DNA from: a virus
Lineage: Duplodnaviria > Caudoviricetes
Virus record (IMG/VR): IMGVR_UViG_3300031555_006395
Span: 1 to 64,000 of that record
Length of the DNA stretch: 64,000 nucleotides
Reading direction: 5' to 3' (one strand)
The translations under genes were made by a program, and so were the position numbers. The stretch's first letter is position 1; every line of letters begins with the position of its first letter. The notes under the pieces are model-generated. The model was given only the letters and a program-made list of their open reading frames with translations. It was not told the DNA's origin and did not search any database. Shown one piece after another: positions 42,854-61,688 of the stretch.

Positions 42854-42982
42854 GTGAATGAATATAAGGTAGCAATCACCATTGAAAGTGATGAAGAAAT
42901 TTATGGTGAGGAATTTTGGGTAAGAGCAGATAGCATTGATGAAGCAATGGAATATATCAAAAGTAAACTTGATGTAGATTAA
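42854..42982 (+). CDS. 42-aa acidic micro-protein (not in the ORF track)
   Basis: GGAGG site then GTG; NEYKVAITIESDEEIYGEEFWVRADSIDEAMEYIKSKLDVD. Confidence 0.65.
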   Translation: MNEYKVAITIESDEEIYGEEFWVRADSIDEAMEYIKSKLDVD

Positions 42983-43018
42983 AAGAATTATTTTAAGTGG
43001 TTTATGGAGGATTTAATT

Positions 43019-43276
43019 ATGCGTAAGATGAATAAAGAAGAAAAGAAACTGATTGAAGTTGAAATCACAAGTATGATGCAATTCGCAGTCGGAAGCGATT
43101 ATGCAAGATACATTCTTGGAGACAAGGGCGAAGATGGTGAAAATACCTTTATTGAAGATGTGATTGAAGATGTGATGTGTGCCTCTGCTTGGGGAGACGA
43201 GGGATTCTATAGTAGTGATGATGTTCGTCTTGCTATTGGCAGAGTACTGATGGATAGAATGGGAATTTACTATTAA
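43019..43276 (+). CDS. Small acidic hypothetical protein
   Basis: GGAGG site. Confidence 0.65.
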   Translation: MRKMNKEEKKLIEVEITSMMQFAVGSDYARYILGDKGEDGENTFIEDVIEDVMCASAWGDEGFYSSDDVRLAIGRVLMDRMGIYY

Positions 43277-43302
43277 AATGTAATTTTATGAGGTAAATAT
43301 AT

Positions 43303-43608
43303 ATGAGAAAAGATATTATGCTTGGAGTAAATAGCAAAAGTAATCGTTGTTGTAAACTTCTTTGCTTAGTGCCGTTTGAGAGAATTGTATCTTCAGAAGT
43401 CGAAGAATCTGATTTTATTCACGATGCTACAAACTGGTGTGGAAATGATGAAATCAAAAGAACTCTTGAACTTATCAAGATGAAGCAGACTGGGAATAAA
43501 ATTGTTCTTGATAAGCCTATTGTATTTCATGGATATGATTATGATTGGGGCAGAGAATGTCCTTGGCAGTTTGAAGTCGATGAAATTCACGAATTGGAAG
43601 AGATTTAA
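43303..43608 (+). CDS. Hypothetical protein
   Basis: GAGGT site after a junction palindrome. Confidence 0.65.
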   Translation: MRKDIMLGVNSKSNRCCKLLCLVPFERIVSSEVEESDFIHDATNWCGNDEIKRTLELIKMKQTGNKIVLDKPIVFHGYDYDWGRECPWQFEVDEIHELEEI

Positions 43609-43633
43609 AAGGATAATTTTATGAGGTGAAAGT

Positions 43634-43822
43634 ATGAATAGATACCTTATGAGAATTGAGGGTTATTTTTCTGGATGGAAACAGTTTGAGATTGAAGCAG
43701 ACAATAAGCAGGACGCTGTAGTAAGAGCAAAGGAATATTGTAAGAAACATTCCGAATATGGCATTGGTGGAAATTATAAGTTTGATTCAATCGAATGTGT
43801 TAAGAAGTTGAATATAAAATGA
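43634..43822 (+). CDS. Small protein with IEADN motif
   Basis: GAGGTG site. Confidence 0.65.
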   Translation: MNRYLMRIEGYFSGWKQFEIEADNKQDAVVRAKEYCKKHSEYGIGGNYKFDSIECVKKLNIK

Positions 43823-43842
43823 CGATTTTGTGAGGTAGCGAT

Positions 43843-44040
43843 ATGGATTACAAAATAGAAGTTGATATGTGCCCACACGAATGGGATAACGAAAATAGAC
43901 CTTATTTTTGGATGATAACCAACGGTGTTTGTAACAACGGTTTTGGATGGAGCGAAACACCAGAACAAGCATGGAAAGATGCGTTAAATTATTATATTTA
44001 CCATGTAAAAAGTAATTTACGGGGTGGTGAAACGGTGTGA
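43843..44040 (+). CDS. Small hypothetical protein
   Basis: GAGGT site. Confidence 0.6.
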   Translation: MDYKIEVDMCPHEWDNENRPYFWMITNGVCNNGFGWSETPEQAWKDALNYYIYHVKSNLRGGETV

Positions 44041-44309
44041 AAAACGGATGCAAAGATTTTATTTCTCCTACAATGGATAAGATTAAAATCGAACCCTTTT
44101 TTGAGAATCGTTTGCACGATATTGCTTTTGCTCAAGTTAGTTTACGACATTTAAATAATAGGGGTGTATATTTAGAAGATACTATACAACTTACGCAAGA
44201 ATTGTATAAATACATTATCTATCTGTATTCTCATATAGAACAACTTGAAAAAGACAAGCAGTACTTATTGGCTCAATATTTAAAAAAACACAAAAGAGAT
44301 AGGTTGTGA
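44037..44309 (+). CDS. Small hypothetical protein
   Basis: GGGGTG site, GTG start. Confidence 0.6.
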   Translation: MKNGCKDFISPTMDKIKIEPFFENRLHDIAFAQVSLRHLNNRGVYLEDTIQLTQELYKYIIYLYSHIEQLEKDKQYLLAQYLKKHKRDRL

Positions 44310-44313
44310 TGAT

Positions 44314-44547
44314 ATGGATATCTTATATGATTGTTATGACGAAAATGAAAAGCCTATTGGGATTATTTTTGCTAAAGATTGTGCCGATTTATTGCAGAAA
44401 AATCCAAATGTAAAATATGTGAGAGGAATCGATGCTGTTACTCGCAGACCTCATTGGCACAAGGTAAAAGAAAATGGTTTATGGCCTTACCAACCCAAAG
44501 TTAAAGCGCATAGGGACGAAAGTGACTGGCATTATTCAGACTATTGA
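44314..44547 (+). CDS. Small hypothetical protein
   Basis: Packed within the operon. Confidence 0.6.
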   Translation: MDILYDCYDENEKPIGIIFAKDCADLLQKNPNVKYVRGIDAVTRRPHWHKVKENGLWPYQPKVKAHRDESDWHYSDY

Positions 44548-44583
44548 ATACATAAAAGAGTGATTTTGTGAGGAGGTAATGAA

Positions 44584-51781: not shown

Positions 51782-51803
51782 GGGAGAGGTTACGACCTCT
51801 CCC
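51782..51803. terminator. Hairpin between convergent transcripts
   Basis: GGGAGAGG-TTACGA-CCTCTCCC. Confidence 0.6.
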
Positions 51804-52239
51804 TTCCCATCAGCTCAAGTTTTAAATCTACGTATTGTTGCGGGATACCGGCAAGAATCGCAAGTTGCTCTTTTGAAAAACTGATATGTTCTTCAATGAA
51901 ATCATCAGATAACAATAACTCTGCTACAAAAAGATTTGCCTCTCGTTCAGGACGATATTCAAATCCCCAGGGTGAATCCGCTTCTGTGAATGCGGCCAAA
52001 TGACGATGCAGAACCTGGTGTGCAATCTCGTGAGCAATAACAACCCTCTTTTCCTCATCGCTCAAATCTTCTTTTAACAAAATGTAATCGAATCCAAACG
52101 AGGAATAAAATAATCCCTTCGTTTTATTCAGAGGGCGTTCCCAAATTTCAATGCAAAGACATTCACATAATTCATACGGATCTCTTGTTCCATATAAAGA
52201 AATCAATTCTAAGGCTTTGCTTTTAATGAAACTTTTCAA
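51790..52239 (-). CDS. immA: ImmA/IrrE-family metallopeptidase anti-repressor
   Basis: AHEIAH (HExxH), EREANLFVAELL. Confidence 0.88.
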   Translation of the reverse strand: MKSFIKSKALELISLYGTRDPYELCECLCIEIWERPLNKTKGLFYSSFGFDYILLKEDLSDEEKRVVIAHEIAHQVLHRHLAAFTEADSPWGFEYRPEREANLFVAELLLSDDFIEEHISFSKEQLAILAGIPQQYVDLKLELMGRERS

Positions 52240-52245
52240 TTATAA

Positions 52246-52620
52246 TTACTCCTCATTTTTCGATTTGGCGATTCCGGCTTTGATTTTGGCATCAATATAC
52301 ATTTCTGAAATCGCATTATAAATAATTCCCAAATCGTTTTCATCCATTTTTCCACCCATATATAAAGCGGAAATCTGATTAATAACTTCTTTGGGATCAT
52401 TATAATTTATATCTTGTCCAATAAAGCGGTCTTCAACTAGAGCTGCGGGAGAAACATTTAAAGCTTGGGCTAAGCTGTTAATACTTTTTAGAGTTGGCTG
52501 CTTTTCGTTACGCTCCCAAACACCAATGGATCTATCGGAGATACCCAGCTTTTCCGCAAGTTCAACTCTTGTCATTCCTGCATTCGTTCGAATGGTTTTC
52601 AAATTATCTCCAAAACTCAT
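52246..52620 (-). CDS. immR: XRE-family HTH repressor (ImmR-like)
   Basis: MTRVELAEKLGISDRSIGVWERNEKQP; co-transcribed with immA. Confidence 0.85.
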   Translation of the reverse strand: MSFGDNLKTIRTNAGMTRVELAEKLGISDRSIGVWERNEKQPTLKSINSLAQALNVSPAALVEDRFIGQDINYNDPKEVINQISALYMGGKMDENDLGIIYNAISEMYIDAKIKAGIAKSKNEE

Positions 52621-52633
52621 GCTTTCTGTCCCC

Positions 52634-52662
52634 TTTACAAACTAAAAGATGTATGATATTAT
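52634..52662 (+). promoter_or_regulatory. sigma-A promoter divergent from the repressor
   Basis: TTTACA-N17-TATTAT with TG extension. Confidence 0.6.
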
Positions 52663-52764
52663 GACTTTGCAATCTTTAAAACGGATATTTAATCAAAAAA
52701 CAATTTTTAAGTTGTTTTTATTCTATCAAAACATACTTGCTTTGTCAACAAAAGGAGTCAAAAA

Positions 52765-53076
52765 ATGAAGCTTTTAAACGAAGAAATTGAAACGATGTAT
52801 TCTGATTACGATTTCTCTGGCTTGATTGTAAATTCACTGCCAAACCAAGTAGAATATCTTCTCCCAATTGTTCCACAGGTGAATTTTATTTTTGACGATT
52901 TTTTCTACCGGAATGAAATCGATATCCCGTTTGATAGTTCTTATTATTTAAGGATTATCCGTTCAGCGACGGCATTTTTATTCGATCTATTTGCTTGTGA
53001 TGATAATGCGAATTTCACCTCTGTACATATTCAATCTGTCGAAGATTGGATTTTAAAAAAGGTTGCAATTTTATAA
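52765..53076 (+). CDS. Acidic hypothetical protein
   Basis: AAGGAG site. Confidence 0.7.
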   Translation: MKLLNEEIETMYSDYDFSGLIVNSLPNQVEYLLPIVPQVNFIFDDFFYRNEIDIPFDSSYYLRIIRSATAFLFDLFACDDNANFTSVHIQSVEDWILKKVAIL

Positions 53077-53091
53077 AGAATATGGTATTCT
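53063..53091 (+). promoter_or_regulatory. sigma-A promoter
   Basis: TTGCAA-N17-TATTCT with TG extension. Confidence 0.55.
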
Positions 53092-53101
53092 TTACTAAGA
53101 G

Positions 53102-54403
53102 GTGATAAAATTGATTCATAACAGAGAAGAGCTTAATAAAGCCCTACAAACAATTTTTCAAACGAATGATGCTGTACTGCGTTCTGGCGCAGCTCAAAAA
53201 CTTTATGAAAATAAAGGTATTTCCCAAATTGAAGTATTTAATATTTGGGGTGGAAATACGGCCATCGAAGATGCTCCTGATGAATTAGTTTGTGCTCTGG
53301 CTCAATTTCTTCACCCTCACAACAAGAGATTGTTACAAGGATGGGATACTCTTTTTACAGATGAAGTGAAAAATAAATCCTTTAAACAAAAAACGGATGA
53401 TGAAAAGACTTACCCAATTATTATTAAAAATGCAGTTTTAATTAACCATAATCATTACCTTGCATCGATTCACATTTCGCAACTGTTTAAGCTTCAGCAT
53501 CAAGGTTTACTGAGACGAGAAGCAGATACACAGCGAGAAACCATTACAAAGGTTGTCAATGGTGTGAAAATCTCGTATATCAACGTGGATTATGACCAGG
53601 TGTTTCAAATTGCGAAGGCATTAAAAGAACGAAAATATTTCCCCGATGAGCTTAAAATTAATATCATTGATAATGGAAACGCCCTATTTGAATATGATGA
53701 TAATAAAAAAGAGTTAATTATTCGCGCCGGCGATTTAAGCGTTGTCGATGGTAATCACCGTCTTTTGGCGATTGAAGCTGCGATGGGGGAGGATCCTACA
53801 ATAGACTTATCTTTCCCTGTATCGATAACCTATTATCCAATTTGGAAATCGCAGGAAATGTTAATCCAACAGGAGAAAAAGCGCCCCATCAATAAAGCTT
53901 TGATTAAAACGTTTGCAAATACGCAGGAAAATGCTGTCGTAGCTGAAATTTATCGAAATAACCTGCTCATGCCTGGACTTGAGATTACTAAAGAAGAATA
54001 CGCAGCATATAATGGTTATGCGCATATTCTGTATTCTGACCTTGCTGATGCTGTTAATTTAAGCTACTCTCAAACAGAAATAGCGATGAAAAAAGATGAG
54101 GTCGTCGAGAATGTCGTAAAAGCAATCAATCTCTTCGCAATGAATAAATCTCATTTCTTTTTCAATGAGTCAGGGTCGATTCGACGTAGAAATCTATTCA
54201 TTAAAAAATGCGGCGGTTTGTACTATATGATTAAAGCGTATCAATATGCTCAAAAGAGTACGGATTCCAGTGCAGTTTATTTAAATATTATTGAAAATAC
54301 AGATTATGATCGTTATTCCTATGCATTTACTCATGCAGGGCCTAACAATCTAAACCAGGTTCAGGCAATCGATCGTTTGATTGAGGAGGCCGCTCATGCT
54401 TAA
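53102..54403 (+). CDS. DGQHR/ParB-like domain protein (SPbeta YopQ-like)
   Basis: VVDGNHRLLAI; preceded by QRE...I-V-xxQV; adjacent to an MrpR-like gene. Confidence 0.72.
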   Translation: MIKLIHNREELNKALQTIFQTNDAVLRSGAAQKLYENKGISQIEVFNIWGGNTAIEDAPDELVCALAQFLHPHNKRLLQGWDTLFTDEVKNKSFKQKTDDEKTYPIIIKNAVLINHNHYLASIHISQLFKLQHQGLLRREADTQRETITKVVNGVKISYINVDYDQVFQIAKALKERKYFPDELKINIIDNGNALFEYDDNKKELIIRAGDLSVVDGNHRLLAIEAAMGEDPTIDLSFPVSITYYPIWKSQEMLIQQEKKRPINKALIKTFANTQENAVVAEIYRNNLLMPGLEITKEEYAAYNGYAHILYSDLADAVNLSYSQTEIAMKKDEVVENVVKAINLFAMNKSHFFFNESGSIRRRNLFIKKCGGLYYMIKAYQYAQKSTDSSAVYLNIIENTDYDRYSYAFTHAGPNNLNQVQAIDRLIEEAAHA

Positions 54404-55343
54404 CGAAGAATTAAAAATGGAATATCTAAATGCTGTTTGTATGAACGCTCCCGAATCCCGCAGAACGGTTTATATAAACAAAATGAAACGCCTGTCTCAG
54501 AATATTGAGGTTGTCTTTAATAAGGATTTTTGCAATATTTCATTTGGAGAATACCAAGCTTTCTTTACAAGCGGCGCTTATTCTGATACCCGTACTGCCG
54601 GTAATGATTTACGTTTCATTTCGAATTATATCGAGTGGTGTTTTTACAACAACAAATTCCCACGTGTGATGAATAATGCGCAGCTTTTGTTAAAACAGCT
54701 GAAGCCAACAGATATTGTTAAAGGTGCCATTCGAAACAAGATTTTATTTTCACCTGCAGAATTAATCGATTATATAGATATATTGTGTTCAGGAAGTTCA
54801 AAATACTACTTGTTTATGCCTGTTTCAATTCTTCTGTTTTCTGGTGTTTCGTTCGATGAAATACACTTGATCAAACGCGATGATATTGATAATCTTGCGA
54901 TGACAATTCATTTCAACGATGTAATTTTAGATATTCCCCATGAATTTCAATTACACGTTAATAGAATTCTAAATCGAGAGAAAAAAGTTGAGGTCTTCGC
55001 TTTTAGAACCGATGATTCTCGTTCGTACACAATGTATGACGCATATCCGGATATGTTTTGTACTGTATATAATCACACAGGTATTCCACCGTCAAATTCG
55101 ATACAGAAATCTTATACTGTCTCTTTATCTACCGCAAAGGCAGCTGTTGATACGGGAGTTAAAAAAATCGGACCGTTGGATATTGCTATCTCAGGTTTAT
55201 TTTATCGGTTAAATAAAAACAAATATACGGATTTAAATAATCCATTGGCGCAGCAATTTTTATTGAGATTTAATAATTCTGGAAATAAAATGAAAGAATT
55301 AACCCTGTTATATAGTGAGTATTTAGATAGTATAAATGAATAG
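54396..55343 (+). CDS. Catalytically dead tyrosine-recombinase-fold protein, MrpR (YopR)-like repressor
   Basis: SAM-like N-terminal region; LLFSGVSFDEI lacks the catalytic Arg and DIAISG replaces HxxR. Confidence 0.65.
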   Translation: MLNEELKMEYLNAVCMNAPESRRTVYINKMKRLSQNIEVVFNKDFCNISFGEYQAFFTSGAYSDTRTAGNDLRFISNYIEWCFYNNKFPRVMNNAQLLLKQLKPTDIVKGAIRNKILFSPAELIDYIDILCSGSSKYYLFMPVSILLFSGVSFDEIHLIKRDDIDNLAMTIHFNDVILDIPHEFQLHVNRILNREKKVEVFAFRTDDSRSYTMYDAYPDMFCTVYNHTGIPPSNSIQKSYTVSLSTAKAAVDTGVKKIGPLDIAISGLFYRLNKNKYTDLNNPLAQQFLLRFNNSGNKMKELTLLYSEYLDSINE

Positions 55344-55388
55344 AAGCCCAATTATTTGGGCTTTATAATATTAAATGAAATTAAACTA

Positions 55389-55417
55389 TTGATAAAATTA
55401 GAGTTTTATGTTATAAT
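55389..55417 (+). promoter_or_regulatory. sigma-A promoter for mazF
   Basis: TTGATA-N17-TATAAT with TG extension. Confidence 0.75.
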
Positions 55418-55446
55418 AACGACACCAAAACGAAAGGAGGACGTCA

Positions 55447-55788
55447 ATGGAAACAATTAAACGAGGAGATATTTATTATGCAGATCTTAGCCCCGTTGTT
55501 GGATCTGAGCAGGGAGGGACCAGACCAGTAATTGTATTACAAAACAATACCGGCAACCGTTTTTCTCCAACAATTATCGTTGCTCCGTTTACCAGTAATA
55601 AAGGGAAAAAGATGCTGCCAACACATCTTTTGATGAAAAGCGAAGAAACGGGATTGCCGAAGGATTCCATCGTCCTGCTCGAACAGGTGAGATCAATCGA
55701 TAAAAGTCGATTGGTTAGCGAAAACGTTGGAAAGATTCGGAATTTGGATACTTTAAATGAAATCATTAAAGTAGCTTTTTTTGGGTAA
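55447..55788 (+). CDS. mazF: MazF/PemK endoribonuclease (NdoA-like), no adjacent antitoxin
   Basis: KRGDIYYADLSPVVGSEQGGTRPV...NRFSPT...LLEQVRSIDKSRL. Confidence 0.95.
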   Translation: METIKRGDIYYADLSPVVGSEQGGTRPVIVLQNNTGNRFSPTIIVAPFTSNKGKKMLPTHLLMKSEETGLPKDSIVLLEQVRSIDKSRLVSENVGKIRNLDTLNEIIKVAFFG

Positions 55789-55848
55789 TCAATAATAAAA
55801 TTGATTACATCGATTTATAATAAAATGAAGCGCTATGCCGCTTCATAT

Positions 55849-55940
55849 GGGAAGTTGGCTGAGTGGTTGAAAGCGGCGGTCTTGAAAACCGCTGATGGAG
55901 TCAAATCCATCCGAGGGTTCGAATCCCCCACTTCCCGCCA
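55849..55940 (+). tRNA. tRNA-Ser(TGA)
   Basis: Long variable arm, CT-TGA-AA loop, G73, CCA. Confidence 0.95.
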
Positions 55941-55943
55941 AAT

Positions 55944-56019
55944 GCGGTCGTAGCTCAAATGGCGGAGCATCTGCCTTCCAAGCAGAGGGTTGCGAGTTCG
56001 ATTCTCGTCGGCCGCTCCA
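55944..56019 (+). tRNA. tRNA-Gly(TCC)
   Basis: CT-TCC-AA loop, CCA. Confidence 0.95.
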
Positions 56020-56038
56020 ATAACAAGGGAGGGTTAAT

Positions 56039-56908
56039 ATGAAAATTCAGTCCTTATCGGTTGTAGTACCGGCAAAACAATGCATTAATAATTGTAAATT
56101 TTGTGTAGCCAGAATGAAAGAAGAGCCCTATAAAAATCAATTCGATGCAAATCTTCCGTTTTATCATCTCTATCAGGATGATTACTTAAAACGATTGGCA
56201 TTTGCTAGAGATAATGGTTGTAATACGGTGATGCTTACCGGCAATGCTGAGCCGCAACAGAATAGAGCTTTTCTAAAAGATTTTGGAACACTAAACAGAC
56301 AATTGGAAAGACCCTTCCGATGGATAGAGATGCAGACCACAGGGAGATTGTTGGATGATCCGTATCTTAGATTTTTAAGAAACCATGTGGGTGTTTCTAC
56401 AATTTCGCTCTCAATTTGCTCCTTTGATGATATAAAAAACGGAGAAATCTGCCAAATGAAAGAACCTGTGGATCTGCATTATCTCTGCCATGAAATTAAA
56501 CGATATGATTTTAATCTTAGAATTTCTGTGAACTTAACCGATGCGTTCAACCATATGGGCGCAGAAGAAATTATTGATTATTGTAAAAATGAGTTGAAAG
56601 CAGATCAGATTACATTTCGTGTATTATATCAGTCTGATGGGAATACCGACCAAGATAAGTGGATTGATGAGCACGCTGCCAAACCAAAGCTAATTGAAGA
56701 AATCAAAGAATATATTCGGAGATTCGGCAGACCTTTGGAACGTTTGGTTTTTGGCGCAATGAAATATTCGATTAAGGGAATGTCTGTTGTTTTGGACGAT
56801 GATTGTATGGCTACAGCGACAGATAAAGAAGAGCTGAAATACTTAATCCTTCGTCCTAATTGTAAACTTTATAGTAAGTGGGATGATCCGGCAAGTTTGA
56901 TTTTTTAG
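56039..56908 (+). CDS. Radical SAM protein
   Basis: CINNCKFC (CxxxCxxC); MLTGNAEP. Confidence 0.88.
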   Translation: MKIQSLSVVVPAKQCINNCKFCVARMKEEPYKNQFDANLPFYHLYQDDYLKRLAFARDNGCNTVMLTGNAEPQQNRAFLKDFGTLNRQLERPFRWIEMQTTGRLLDDPYLRFLRNHVGVSTISLSICSFDDIKNGEICQMKEPVDLHYLCHEIKRYDFNLRISVNLTDAFNHMGAEEIIDYCKNELKADQITFRVLYQSDGNTDQDKWIDEHAAKPKLIEEIKEYIRRFGRPLERLVFGAMKYSIKGMSVVLDDDCMATATDKEELKYLILRPNCKLYSKWDDPASLIF

Positions 56909-56916
56909 GGGGATTT

Positions 56917-57189
56917 ATGATGTTGACGAATTATGATGTTATTAAATCTATGAGCGGAAAAGATCTTCAATTATTTTTAGATGTTGTTTATTGTGCCGGC
57001 TTAAATATTGGCGGTTATGCCGCGACTCTTCCGGAAGGTGAACAATGCGAAATCCTCGCTGATTCTCCTTTTAATGACTGGCTCTTTGAAGCTGCTGAAG
57101 AAGCGTTTGGGGTTGATGGAAATTGTTATTGCAAACCATACTTAAAAACTGTTATGAAAGCTGCGAGGATTCAAGATGACGAAAATTGA
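56917..57189 (+). CDS. Small hypothetical protein
   Basis: MTNYDxIKSM start pattern; GGGGG site. Confidence 0.6.
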   Translation: MMLTNYDVIKSMSGKDLQLFLDVVYCAGLNIGGYAATLPEGEQCEILADSPFNDWLFEAAEEAFGVDGNCYCKPYLKTVMKAARIQDDEN

Positions 57190-57439
57190 AGAAAGTTTTT
57201 TTGAAGCGCTTCGTTATGCTGCAGATCGCGATATGTTGGTAAACATACAAACATATAAAGGAAAATTCTTTTGCCATGTCCAATATGATAAAAAAATAGA
57301 AGGATATGCAGGTTTTTCTCACAATCATTCTTTTCAAGAACAAGATTTGAATCTGATAAACCTGATACATTCGATTCGTTCTTCTACGGATATGATTTTA
57401 GAAAGAGTTAAGTTAAGTCAGCAATTAGATCATGATTAA
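57176..57439 (+). CDS. Small hypothetical protein
   Basis: Coupled to the upstream gene. Confidence 0.55.
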   Translation: MTKIEESFFEALRYAADRDMLVNIQTYKGKFFCHVQYDKKIEGYAGFSHNHSFQEQDLNLINLIHSIRSSTDMILERVKLSQQLDHD

Positions 57440-57557
57440 AAATTTGGTGCTGTTTTTACATAACAGTTAAATGTCCAGTAAGGCTAAATATCATATGGAG
57501 TCGCCAAGTGATCCGTGATAATCCTAAATGGTATAAAAGAGGAAACAGCCAATTTAT

Positions 57558-59238: not shown

Positions 59239-59263
59239 TTTTTATATTAGGAGGGAATTACAT

Positions 59264-59494
59264 ATGGCAATGAAACCGCAACAGTTACAAGAGTTTGAAA
59301 AAATGGTGCATGACAAAATGAAACAGGTATACAACGATGGAATGACTGTGGGCGCAAAAGCAATTATGTCTGCTATTAATGATATGATTGAGCGTGGAAA
59401 AGGTCGGCCTTGCAAAATGATTCTTTCTGAAATCAAAAGCTTTGTCAGCACCGCCGTAAGGGAGGAAAACGATGAGAATACTTCTGCTTCTTAG
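59264..59494 (+). CDS. Small hypothetical protein
   Basis: AGGAGG site. Confidence 0.7.
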   Translation: MAMKPQQLQEFEKMVHDKMKQVYNDGMTVGAKAIMSAINDMIERGKGRPCKMILSEIKSFVSTAVREENDENTSAS

Positions 59495-61688
59495 AGGTAG
59501 TCCTGGTTGTGGAAAAACGACTTGGATTGAAAAAAATGGTTTAAAACCATACACTCTGTCTGCCGACGATATTCGCATGATGTGCCAAAGCCCAATTTTA
59601 ACTGTTAATGGCGGCGAAGCAATTGATCAAACGAACGATAAATTGGTTTGGCAGACATTATTTAAATTACTTGAAAATCGAATGGAAAAGGGCGCTTTCA
59701 CGGTAATCGATGCAACAAATTCTAAAACGACTGAAATGAATCGGTATAAAACTTTATGTGAGACATATCGCTATCGTATTTATTGTGTCGATTTTACTGA
59801 TATCCCTATTGATGAAGCAAAACGCAGAAATAAATGCCGTCCTTTATCGAAAGTCGTTCCTGAAGAAGTAATCGATAAAATGTATTCCAGATTTGCAACT
59901 CAGAAAATACCCTCTGGCATTAAAGTAATTCGTCCTGACGAATTAGACTCTATTTGGATCCACAAAATTGATCTTTCGCAATACAATAAAGTCCATATGA
60001 TTGGCGATATTCATGGGTGTTGCACTGTATTAAAAGAATATATGGATGCAAATTGGAATGAAAATGATTTTTATATTTTTTGCGGAGATTATATCGATCG
60101 TGGCATTGAGAACGTACAGGTAATTAATTATCTGCTTTCTATTTATACCAAGCCTAATGTTTTATTATTAGAGGGTAACCATGAACGATGGCTTCAGATA
60201 TATGCTCATGGAGGAGCAACCAGGTCACAAGAATTTGAAACGCATACAAGAGCCCAGTTAGATGCAGCCAATTTCGACAATCGACAGCTCCGGCAGCTAT
60301 ACAGGAAACTTGGACAATGCGCTTACTTTTCCTTCGGTGACTACACTTATCTTGTAACGCATGGTGGCTTAAGCCAAATTCCAATCAATCTCAGTTTAGT
60401 TCCTACACATCAAATGATTCATGGAGTTGGCAGCTACAGTGATTATGAAAAGGTTGCCGACACTTTTTATTATTGTACCCCTGAGAAAACCTATCAGGTT
60501 TTTGGGCATCGAAATATTAAAAATGCTCCTATTCAATTAAACGATAAAGTATTTGATCTCGAAGGTGGAGTTGAGTTTGGCGGATCTTTGCGATGTGTCC
60601 AATTTGCGAAAGATGGATCTTTTGAAACATTTTCAATAAAGAATAATGTGTATCGTCAAACTGAATCAAAACCTCAAGAGGTATCGAATAATAAAACCGT
60701 TGCCGACATTATTGTTGAGTTCCGAAATAATAAGTATATCAAGGAAAAGAAGTTTGGTAATATATCATCTTTTAACTTTACCCCTACAGCGTTTTATGAA
60801 AAGATTTGGGATTCTCAAACTATTAAGGCCAGAGGACTATATATCGATATTGAAAAACAAAAAGTAGTTGCACGCAGCTATGAAAAGTTTTTTAGAATTA
60901 ACGAGCGGCCGGAAACGAAGTTGGAGATGTTGCAGTATAAACTTCAATTTCCAATTAGCATTTATGTTAAAGAAAATGGATTTTTGGGAATTGTTAGCTA
61001 CGACGAGTATAAAGATGATCTGTTTGTAACAACGAAATCTGATCCTACCGGTGATTACGCAGAATGGTTAAAGGCTATGTTATGCGAGAAATTATCGGAT
61101 CAACAGAGATTACAGTTAAAGGAATACTGCAAACAGCATAATGTTTCCTTTATTTTCGAATGTGTTGATATGAAAAACGATCCTCATATCATCGAGTACC
61201 AAGACAATCAACTGTATTTGTTGGACATTATAAAAAACGCAATTACATTTGAAAAATTGCCATATGAGGATCTTTGTCATGTTGGTCATAGTATTGGACT
61301 GCTTGTTAAAACGAAAGCTTGCGATATATGCACTTGGCAGGAGTTTTACGATTGGTATCATGAGGTCAACTTAGAGGATTATGAATATAATGGCGCACCG
61401 GTCGAGGGTTTTGTTATTGAGGATTCGAAAGGATATATGGTAAAGGTAAAACTTCATTATTATAACTTTTGGAAATTCATGAGAGGCATCTCCCATGAAA
61501 CCCTTCGGAAAGGATATATTTCAAAAACATCTTCATTAACATCAGCGCTGGCGAATCAATACTACGGGTGGCTTAAATCTATTTATGATCCACAGAATCG
61601 TGATCAAATACCGAAAGATATTATTACATTAAGAAAAATGTTTTATATCGCAATGGCTGAAAAGGAGGGGTTTTCCAATGATTGTTAA
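59472..61688 (+). CDS. RNA repair enzyme: polynucleotide kinase + metallophosphatase + Rnl1-type ligase
   Basis: GSPGCGKT P-loop and DATN; GDIHG, GDYIDRG, GNHE; ligase KENG, FE, EGFVI and VKVK. Confidence 0.92.
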   Translation: MRILLLLRGSPGCGKTTWIEKNGLKPYTLSADDIRMMCQSPILTVNGGEAIDQTNDKLVWQTLFKLLENRMEKGAFTVIDATNSKTTEMNRYKTLCETYRYRIYCVDFTDIPIDEAKRRNKCRPLSKVVPEEVIDKMYSRFATQKIPSGIKVIRPDELDSIWIHKIDLSQYNKVHMIGDIHGCCTVLKEYMDANWNENDFYIFCGDYIDRGIENVQVINYLLSIYTKPNVLLLEGNHERWLQIYAHGGATRSQEFETHTRAQLDAANFDNRQLRQLYRKLGQCAYFSFGDYTYLVTHGGLSQIPINLSLVPTHQMIHGVGSYSDYEKVADTFYYCTPEKTYQVFGHRNIKNAPIQLNDKVFDLEGGVEFGGSLRCVQFAKDGSFETFSIKNNVYRQTESKPQEVSNNKTVADIIVEFRNNKYIKEKKFGNISSFNFTPTAFYEKIWDSQTIKARGLYIDIEKQKVVARSYEKFFRINERPETKLEMLQYKLQFPISIYVKENGFLGIVSYDEYKDDLFVTTKSDPTGDYAEWLKAMLCEKLSDQQRLQLKEYCKQHNVSFIFECVDMKNDPHIIEYQDNQLYLLDIIKNAITFEKLPYEDLCHVGHSIGLLVKTKACDICTWQEFYDWYHEVNLEDYEYNGAPVEGFVIEDSKGYMVKVKLHYYNFWKFMRGISHETLRKGYISKTSSLTSALANQYYGWLKSIYDPQNRDQIPKDIITLRKMFYIAMAEKEGFSNDC

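Follow-up and report, generated by a model that had tools for sequence, protein, structure and literature searches.

The stretch of DNA analysed here, called the window below, covers positions 1 to 64,000 of one viral contig, IMGVR_UViG_3300031555_006395 (Duplodnaviria; Caudoviricetes), which is 81,681 bp long. The contig has a G+C content of 38% and no terminal repeat, and it is classed as linear in IMG/VR with an estimated completeness of 67% by CheckV. It encodes a portal protein, a terminase and a YonO-type RNA polymerase 45% identical to the product of SPbeta yonO. From this polymerase and from a yopQ homologue followed by an MrpR-type gene, the phage is placed in the extended SPbeta kind, large siphoviruses with YonO. 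The subject of this study is a solitary mazF gene that lies between a putative lysogeny repressor gene and a tRNA cluster; the flagged interval, 55344-55848, consists of mazF and its two flanking spacers. The features of the locus are collected in Table 1.

Table 1. Features of the mazF locus and its surroundings, with positions in the window
Feature	Position	Strand	Size	Evidence and remarks
ImmA/IrrE-type metalloprotease gene	51790..52239	-	149 aa	Left arm of switch; Peptidase_M78 PF06114, E 6.5e-14; phrog_87
XRE/ImmR-type helix-turn-helix repressor gene	52246..52620	-	124 aa	HTH_3 PF01381, E 2.1e-13
Divergent control region	52621..52764	.		Consensus matches only
Rightward promoter-like site	52634-52662			In control region
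Palindrome AAAAACAATTT/AAGTTGTTTTT	52696-52719			In control region
Leftward promoter-like site	52748-52720			TTGACA-17-TAGAAT, in control region
orf103, first rightward gene	52765..53076	+	103 aa	Acidic product; holds the module's only UACAUA, at 53024
YopQ/SroE-like gene	53102..54403	+	433 aa	DndB/DGQHR-like
MrpR/YopR/SroF-like gene	54381..55343	+	320 aa	Integrase-type core-binding domain
Terminator-like hairpin directly after the mrpR-like stop	55344..55363	+		9-bp stem, -13.4 kcal/mol, z -3.07, weak T tail
mazF promoter-like site	55389..55417	+		TTGATA-17-(TG)TATAAT, 11/12 matches; consensus match only
Ribosome-binding site AAAGGAGG	55433..55440	+		Strong; 6 nt ahead of the mazF ATG; consensus match only
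Solo mazF, EndoA/NdoA type	55447..55788	+	113 aa	R26 and T49 kept
Second hairpin, AT-rich, 3' of mazF	55781-55813
Hairpin between mazF and tRNA-Ser	55825..55846	+		No T tail on the + strand
tRNA-Ser(UGA) and tRNA-Gly(UCC)	55849..56019	+		ARAGORN; first of nine + strand tRNA genes
Radical SAM gene	56039..56908	+	289 aa	PF04055, E 1.8e-8
Pnkp-Rnl1 fusion gene	59472..61688	+	738 aa	Kinase-metallophosphatase-T4 Rnl1-type RNA ligase; phrog_8238, 2.5e-222

The product of mazF matches the PemK_toxin profile (PF02452) with an E-value of 3.2e-29 (101.7 bits, cut-off 23.1; positions 1-94 of the 109 in the profile), scores 100.9 bits with the same profile in a six-frame search, and matches phrog_1936, 'MazF-like growth inhibitor', at 4.4e-29. 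Its best solved relatives are the MazF/EndoA proteins of B. cereus and B. subtilis (7bxy, 4mdx, 4me7; E about 1e-33), and from the identity of about 60% to these structures the phage protein presumably adopts an SH3-like barrel fold. An AlphaFold2 model of the protein, built on a shallow alignment, had a mean predicted local distance difference test score (pLDDT) of 59 and was discarded. Mutagenesis has shown that catalysis by Bacillus MazF depends on Arg25 and Thr48 (PMC7354611). R26 and T49 of phage MazF align to these two residues, in columns that are invariant or nearly so, in agreement with the first-pass annotation, which had described an NdoA-like MazF retaining the catalytic Arg and Thr. 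No invariant column is lost in either of two alignments, one of 10 proteins (29 such columns) and one of 36 proteins, and the β1-β2 RNA loop, SPVVGSEQGG, is likewise kept. Phage MazF is apparently a catalytically competent, antitoxin-less endoribonuclease of the EndoA type. A UACAU(A)-like cleavage site is conserved in the tested MazFs of Bacillota (10.64898/2026.08.06.743204), and phage MazF is likely an mRNA interferase with such a site because of its family, its identity of about 60% and the kept catalytic residues and RNA loop.

The gene is preceded by a spacer of 103 bp, and tRNA-Ser starts 60 bp downstream, at 55849; therefore neither flank could accommodate mazE. The sole plus-strand open reading frame (ORF) of the upstream spacer, 34 codons long and starting with TTG, continues into mazF. 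The predicted sigma-A-like promoter in this spacer is the best plus-strand site within 51.5-60 kb. Both the strong promoter of its own and the lack of space for mazE, which had been claimed for the gene at the outset, are therefore upheld, the former as a prediction. Downstream of mazF, a 71-nt stretch with the two hairpins folds at -20.1 kcal/mol (z -4.26). No 13-mer from the region upstream of mazF recurs at other promoters, no operator common to this region and the XRE switch region was found, and no LexA box was found near the module. As a separate observation, a palindrome, TAAAATTAGAGTTTTA, lies at 55393 within the spacer of the mazF promoter. The pattern TAAAA-N5/6-TTTT(A/G) has 15 plus-strand copies on the contig, where base composition would predict about 2 by a rough estimate, with copies at 42980-44568, 55393, 63970 and contig position 77565; they lie mostly between consecutive small genes, just 5' of their ribosome-binding sites (43-44.6 kb).

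An antitoxin was sought over the whole 81.7-kb contig. RHH_1, the ribbon-helix-helix (RHH) family that weakly matches genuine EndoAI-type MazE, and the MazE_antitoxin profile gave no match in its six frames. AimX and YosL of phi3T neutralise MazF via a MazE-like helix, with contacts at M14, Y18, E20 and M21 (PMC10769878), and the genuine MazE beside a related MazF carries MAAGYQKM; the corresponding helix motif, M..GY.[EK]M, is absent from every real ORF of the contig. None of five related records matched RHH_1 or MazE_antitoxin, three of them (G002, G006 and G007) being 95-97% complete, and G002 and G007 also gave no hit in a scan for the helix motif or in phmmer with the RHH MazE of locus L006. 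Among 80 MazF loci on viral contigs, none has an upstream gene resembling RHH MazE. A cognate antitoxin in cis, whose discovery had been named in the first-pass annotation as evidence against an orphan toxin, was thus not found by profiles or helix motif on this contig, which is 67% complete, nor was a distant one, for which a search had been proposed. The early region of the same phage encodes a complete pair of Phd (91 aa, PF02604, 46186..46461) and Doc/Fic (126 aa, PF02661, 46458..46838), whose genes overlap by 4 nt; this internal control argues that an antitoxin is retained in this genome where it is needed.

The closest cellular relatives of phage MazF are encoded by a chromosomal gene of Thomasclavelia (55-60% identity) and by an integrative element of Faecalibacterium (58-60%), both without an adjacent antitoxin gene. 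The Thomasclavelia gene (L004, L005, L042-L059) is conserved on the chromosome between a gene for a HAD hydrolase and genes for DUF975/CPBP membrane proteins; Ser replaces the catalytic Thr in its product, and its spacer of about 115 bp holds no antitoxin ORF. The Faecalibacterium element (L003, L017, L069-L120) is very common in the human gut and carries XRE, ParB-like, DUF6551 (DGQHT motif), solo MazF, excisionase and tyrosine integrase genes; its mazF frame has no ATG, GTG or TTG before alignment residue 28 and probably uses another start codon.

Solo toxins are frequent in general, and their regulation in trans is common (PMC2701414). MazEF has moreover been reported to restrict antitoxin-deficient phi3T and SPbeta without cell killing (10.1101/2023.04.27.537455). 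On this background, mazF might be a moron for lysogenic conversion, with prophage MazF serving as a defence or superinfection-exclusion nuclease against other phages or as a trans-acting toxin checked by the chromosomal MazE of the host. Its own strong, host-type predicted promoter, the flanking hairpins and the position at a module boundary would suit such a gene, and PHROGs places genes of this kind under moron and host takeover. We nevertheless consider this improbable: it does not account for the association of mazF with SroF-type genes, which recurs in different lineages with differing gene order (see below), and the closest cellular relatives of MazF are also without MazE.

The genes upstream of mazF resemble the lysogeny operon of SPbeta. 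The protein encoded immediately upstream matches MrpR_N_CB (PF22822) with an E-value of 9.8e-12 (45.8 bits, cut-off 27), which bears out the earlier placement of mazF directly downstream of an MrpR-like repressor gene. This SroF-like protein is about 20% identical to YopR and has no sequence match in the PDB. Its gene follows that of a YopQ homologue, which is 25% identical to SPBc2 YopQ (tblastn 2e-7); matches were found in SPBc2 and 24 Bacillus phage records, the best at 7e-8 to 2e-7. The YopQ-like protein scores 28.7 bits with DndB (PF14072), just below the cut-off of 29.1, and matches phrog_5732 at 1.9e-39. In SPbeta, yopQ is followed by yopR at the end of the yopMNOPQR (sroA-F) operon, and the window genes match that order. 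The product of orf103 has no Pfam or PHROG match and no similarity to SPbeta YopN, and no AimR homologue was found on the contig, a weak negative at 67% completeness. The best reading, to which we would give an even chance, is that MazF belongs to an SPbeta-type module composed of the ImmA/XRE genes and, divergently transcribed from them, orf103, the SroE-like gene, the SroF-like gene and mazF.

What is new here is that solo mazF is recurrently linked to SroF/MrpR-type or integrase-family genes. Such an arrangement occurs in at least four further lineages, with varying gene order. In a 98-kb contig (G005/L138), the stop of mazF overlaps by 8 nt the start of a gene for a 317-aa MrpR_N_CB protein (PF22822, 2.8e-10), which is 21% identical over 268 aa to the MrpR-like protein of the window (E 2e-5). 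In seven contigs of three sequence groups, up to 124 kb in length (L146, L148-150 and L155-157), ImmA-XRE genes are followed divergently by a gene for 236-248 aa, mazF and a gene for 320 aa. The MazF of L146 is the closest viral relative found, with 69% identity to that of the window. The 320-aa neighbour of MazF has no Pfam match in the L146/L148 phages, and hhalign comparison with MrpR-like proteins was insignificant. In an AlphaFold2 model of this protein (pLDDT 91), the best full-length fold matches are YopR/MrpR (8bj6, 8a0a, 8bpz) and phi3T SroF (9rd5, 9rgl), with E-values of about 1e-7 to YopR/SroF, ahead of lambda integrase; the fold search on this model settles the assignment of the neighbour to the SroF/MrpR type.

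The closest relative, a 124-kb provirus (G002/L122) whose YonO, radical SAM protein and portal are 57%, 60% and 54% identical to those of the present phage, has an integrase-family gene (PF00589) 13 nt after mazF. Two further observations concern this provirus: an IS200/IS605-type TnpB-like ORF of 372 aa (L122 3321-4439; named from its sequence) separates mazF and its integrase-family neighbour from the radical SAM gene, and the YonO gene consists of three fragments, a split also known from some SPbeta phages. A PemK-family gene is absent from SPBc2, and the YonO phages Perkons and PMBT24 have one each, with no recognisable antitoxin neighbour. Because gene orders differ and the partners are very divergent, the MazF-SroF association is unlikely to reflect inherited synteny alone.

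The close neighbourhood of the two genes could also mean that they form an unconventional toxin-antitoxin pair, in which the lysogeny repressor itself, or another protein of the module (orf103, or the 236-248-aa gene product of the relatives), is the direct inhibitor of MazF. Such a pair would act as an addiction or checkpoint device: loss or inactivation of the repressor would free MazF, punishing prophage loss or aborting improper induction. As in type II systems, the genes adjoin in either order, with an overlap of 8 nt in G005/L138 and distances of 13-43 nt in G002 and the L146 group, and the partner is a DNA-binding protein like the classical antitoxins. No other antitoxin candidate was found, the near-complete genomes that were tested included, and there is a precedent for a transcription factor as the surrogate antitoxin of a solitary MazF (PMC4803016). 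On the other hand, MazE, AimX and YosL act on MazF by inserting an acidic or hydrophobic C-terminal helix, which SroF-type proteins do not have; the two genes are uncoupled in this phage by a hairpin and a predicted promoter between them, and shared regulation explains the conserved neighbourhood equally well. A direct inhibitory role of the repressor or of another module protein thus seems doubtful to us. If it were true, RNase activity would report on the occupancy or integrity of the repressor, and the locus would be a self-contained switch for lysis-lysogeny and addiction that needs no host MazEF.

The reading that we prefer is that MazF is the effector of the lysogeny module. The phages phi3T and SPbeta steer lysis versus lysogeny through the MazEF of their host (PMC10769878; 10.1101/2023.04.27.537455; PMC10516654), as the first-pass annotation had stated. 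In Bacillus, these two phages set host MazF free; it then degrades most phage mRNAs and pushes the infection to lysogeny. In the model that we propose, the present phage and its kin would supply their own nuclease from a gene beside or inside the repressor operon, and would express it together with the repressor genes; lytic transcripts would be cut, probably at UACAUA-like sites, while the repressor would shut the lytic promoters. Phages of this group thus probably carry themselves the MazF that SPbeta phages borrow from the host. The first-pass suggestion of a built-in lysogeny effector gains support from the recurrent linkage to SroF/MrpR-type or integrase-family genes and from SPbeta being without MazF, and it stands in so far as a function can be read from conserved linkage and the Bacillus paradigm. 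The two modes of action suggested with it, restraint of the nuclease by host MazE and a subunit that changes host MazF, found no support in the analysis. For the full statement, namely a catalytically competent, antitoxin-less MazF of an SPbeta-type lysogeny module that acts as a phage-supplied effector, we judge the chances to be evenly balanced.

An unopposed toxin would have to be restrained in the lysogen. The restraint could come from a narrow six-base specificity that makes the enzyme non-lethal, from transcriptional timing, from an unrecognised phage inhibitor or from host MazE acting in trans. The first of these has a counterpart in B. subtilis, where six-base specificity makes MazF a non-lethal regulator (10.64898/2026.08.06.743204).

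A count of the cleavage motif in phage genes, which had been proposed as a test, gave no significant signal. UACAUA occurs 26 times in the sense strands of the phage genes against 20.6 expected, and neither UACAUA nor UACAU is depleted or significantly enriched relative to synonymous shuffles, overall or by block. Transcripts of phi3T are rich in UACAU, and for SPbeta and phi3T at least 4 UACAU per kb have been reported in 17.5% of genes (10.1101/2023.04.27.537455); in this phage the fraction is 15%. Since the phage genes do not avoid the cut site, the data argue against a weapon for host shut-off with self-immunity, and they are compatible with a self-limiting, lysogeny-promoting role of MazF.

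Several points weigh against MazF as a lysogeny effector. Sites of cleavage give it no positive support at the locus: the YopQ-like, MrpR-like and mazF genes contain no UACAU (2607 nt, 3.0 expected), with a local P of 0.03 only, and 57% of genome-wide synonymous shuffles contain a site-free stretch of the same length, so that this absence is given no weight. In addition, the first gene of the operon, orf103, does carry one UACAUA, and the sro operon of SPbeta itself is not free of UACAU. The hairpin and the strong predicted promoter part mazF from the repressor gene and leave it outside the sro-like operon, and its transcripts may instead continue into the block of tRNA, radical SAM and RNA-repair genes. 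A stable lysogen is difficult to reconcile with a toxin that is unopposed and driven by a constitutive-looking promoter, unless this toxin is non-lethal or inhibited. With the contig at an estimated completeness of about 67%, the remaining third of the genome might encode an inhibitor. Metatranscriptome contigs cover parts of the YopQ-like and MrpR-like genes and not mazF, and are uninformative on expression.

The protein itself also departs from its relatives, its most divergent part being the residues beside T49 and the loop behind it. P47 and F48 stand beside the catalytic Thr where more than 90% of relatives have A and I, the loop departs from the EndoA consensus, and the C-terminal helix is a few residues shorter than that of relatives. 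The loop behind the catalytic Thr has been described as a main antitoxin-contact site (PMC7354611). The two replacements of near-invariant residues, the shortened helix and the lack of an antitoxin might alternatively indicate a silent or domesticated protein, i.e. an RNA-binding or regulatory MazF fold that has no toxic nuclease activity, or a recent acquisition that is decaying. This is very unlikely in our judgement, as all invariant catalytic and RNA-loop residues are kept and solo MazF is conserved in many phage lineages. Seventeen contigs encode the identical protein, and there are variants that differ by 1-2 substitutions; a bovine-gut contig that covers 52700-57500 with 98.4% identity keeps the region without indels.

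Downstream of mazF, the tRNA genes, the radical SAM gene and the gene for the Pnkp-Rnl1 fusion form a co-oriented block. The fusion combines RNA_lig_T4_1, AAA_33 and Metallophos domains in one polypeptide encoded just after the tRNA cluster, and homologues 54-56% identical occur in G002 and G007; radical SAM homologues, 43-60% identical, occur in 16 viral contigs. Two plus-strand UACAUA sequences were noticed in non-coding DNA at the borders of the tRNA cluster, one at 57457 (about 100 nt before tRNA-Ile) and the other at 59259 (20 nt past the last tRNA-Gln). If MazF has UACAUA specificity, a long transcript of mazF and the tRNA genes could be processed at these two positions.

The products of MazF cleavage are substrates of repair enzymes of the Pnkp-Rnl1 type, and the Pnkp-Rnl1 gene may belong with mazF. 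In that case mazF would be the first gene of a block that cuts, replaces and heals RNA, composed of tRNAs, radical SAM gene, structured RNAs and Pnkp-Rnl1 and serving lytic takeover or counter-defence: MazF would cut host RNAs, and the phage would supply tRNAs and repair breaks that carry 2',3'-cyclic phosphate and 5'-OH termini. From mazF to the Pnkp-Rnl1 gene, every gene indeed has the same orientation, and no T-tailed terminator follows mazF. The Pnkp-Rnl1 fusion is well supported, and its gene is found 3.7 kb downstream of mazF in this phage and again in G007, a distant phage with a portal of only 29% identity. In the closest relative, G002, however, the repair gene is about 32 kb from mazF, and the mazF-SroF linkage spans more lineages than the mazF-repair linkage. 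The cut site is not depleted in phage genes, so that a signature of self-immunity is missing, and ligases are unlikely to rejoin cut mRNAs. Overall, we find little reason to expect that mazF works with the repair block rather than as the effector of the lysogeny module.

The phage is, from sequence comparison, related only distantly to any isolate phage: isolate phages gave no match to the locus with megablast and none to the MrpR-like protein with tblastn. IMG/VR scans with the MrpR-like and YopQ-like proteins gave no match, and the radical SAM gene and a scan of IMG/VR with the MazF alignment served as the anchors for finding relatives. The sequence of the phage has been found in metagenomes of animal gut and faeces from at least 11 studies. 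Two candidates for defence or counter-defence were noted in the early region, namely a 512-aa protein with a GmrSD_N domain (PF03235, 47806-49344) and a Lar-like restriction-alleviation protein (PF14354, 50216-50698).

The linkage in divergent gut phages, together with SPbeta being without mazF, suggests that the MazF-based decision may be an ancestral or portable part of the repressor system rather than a peculiarity of one host. These phages would also be simpler experimental systems, with one phage locus and no need of a host toxin-antitoxin system, and could show which transcripts MazF cuts for dormancy and how an antitoxin-less nuclease stays harmless. The locus would furthermore add one more well-defined case of a toxin gene recruited as a regulator.

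Phage MazF belongs to the same Pfam family as B. subtilis MazF (EndoA/NdoA, YdcE), the partner of MazE (EndoAI), and its orthologues in S. aureus, B. cereus and L. monocytogenes, with about 60% identity in the core. It differs from the B. subtilis protein in P47, F48 and the loop behind T49 and in its shorter C-terminal helix; its gene lies outside the alr-mazE-mazF-rsb context and has no RHH MazE gene upstream or elsewhere on the contig. MazF activity is the published effector that tips SPbeta and phi3T to lysogeny (PMC10769878; 10.1101/2023.04.27.537455). In phi3T, proteins of the sro operon free host MazF from MazE, and AimX and YosL block MazF (PMC10769878). Like the sro operon of SPbeta and phi3T (sroA-F, equivalent to yopM-R), the locus has a SroE(YopQ)-like gene with a SroF(MrpR/YopR)-like gene directly behind it, and the phage is likewise a large siphovirus that encodes YonO. 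SPbeta and phi3T act on host MazF via small proteins that bind MazE (SroA/phi3T_93) or MazF (AimX, YosL) and have no mazF of their own, whereas here the nuclease is encoded by the phage and an ImmA/XRE switch is paired with the module. AimR, the MazE-like helix and similarity to YopN were not found in the present contig, which is estimated to be 67% complete.

Other solitary MazF proteins provide further comparisons. In Myxococcus xanthus, MrpC has been reported to control the transcription of the solitary MazF-mx and to neutralise the protein, which was later disputed (PMC4803016). This system likewise has mazF without mazE, and MrpC is a conceptual precedent for a repressor that acts as an antitoxin, although MazF-mx is chromosomal and developmental, and MrpC is unlinked (4.4 Mb away) and of another fold. 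The solo EndoA-type MazFs of Thomasclavelia and of the Faecalibacterium element are 55-60% identical to the phage protein and have no adjacent antitoxin ORF, and the Faecalibacterium gene, too, has a ParB/DGQHR-like gene before it, with one for a tyrosine recombinase further on; in contrast to the phage locus, these contexts are cellular or a small integrative element and are without a SroF-type repressor. Collectively, from the linkage and the Bacillus paradigm, the locus appears to be a variation on the known regulatory theme of MazF and lysogeny, in which the nuclease would be carried by the phage itself.

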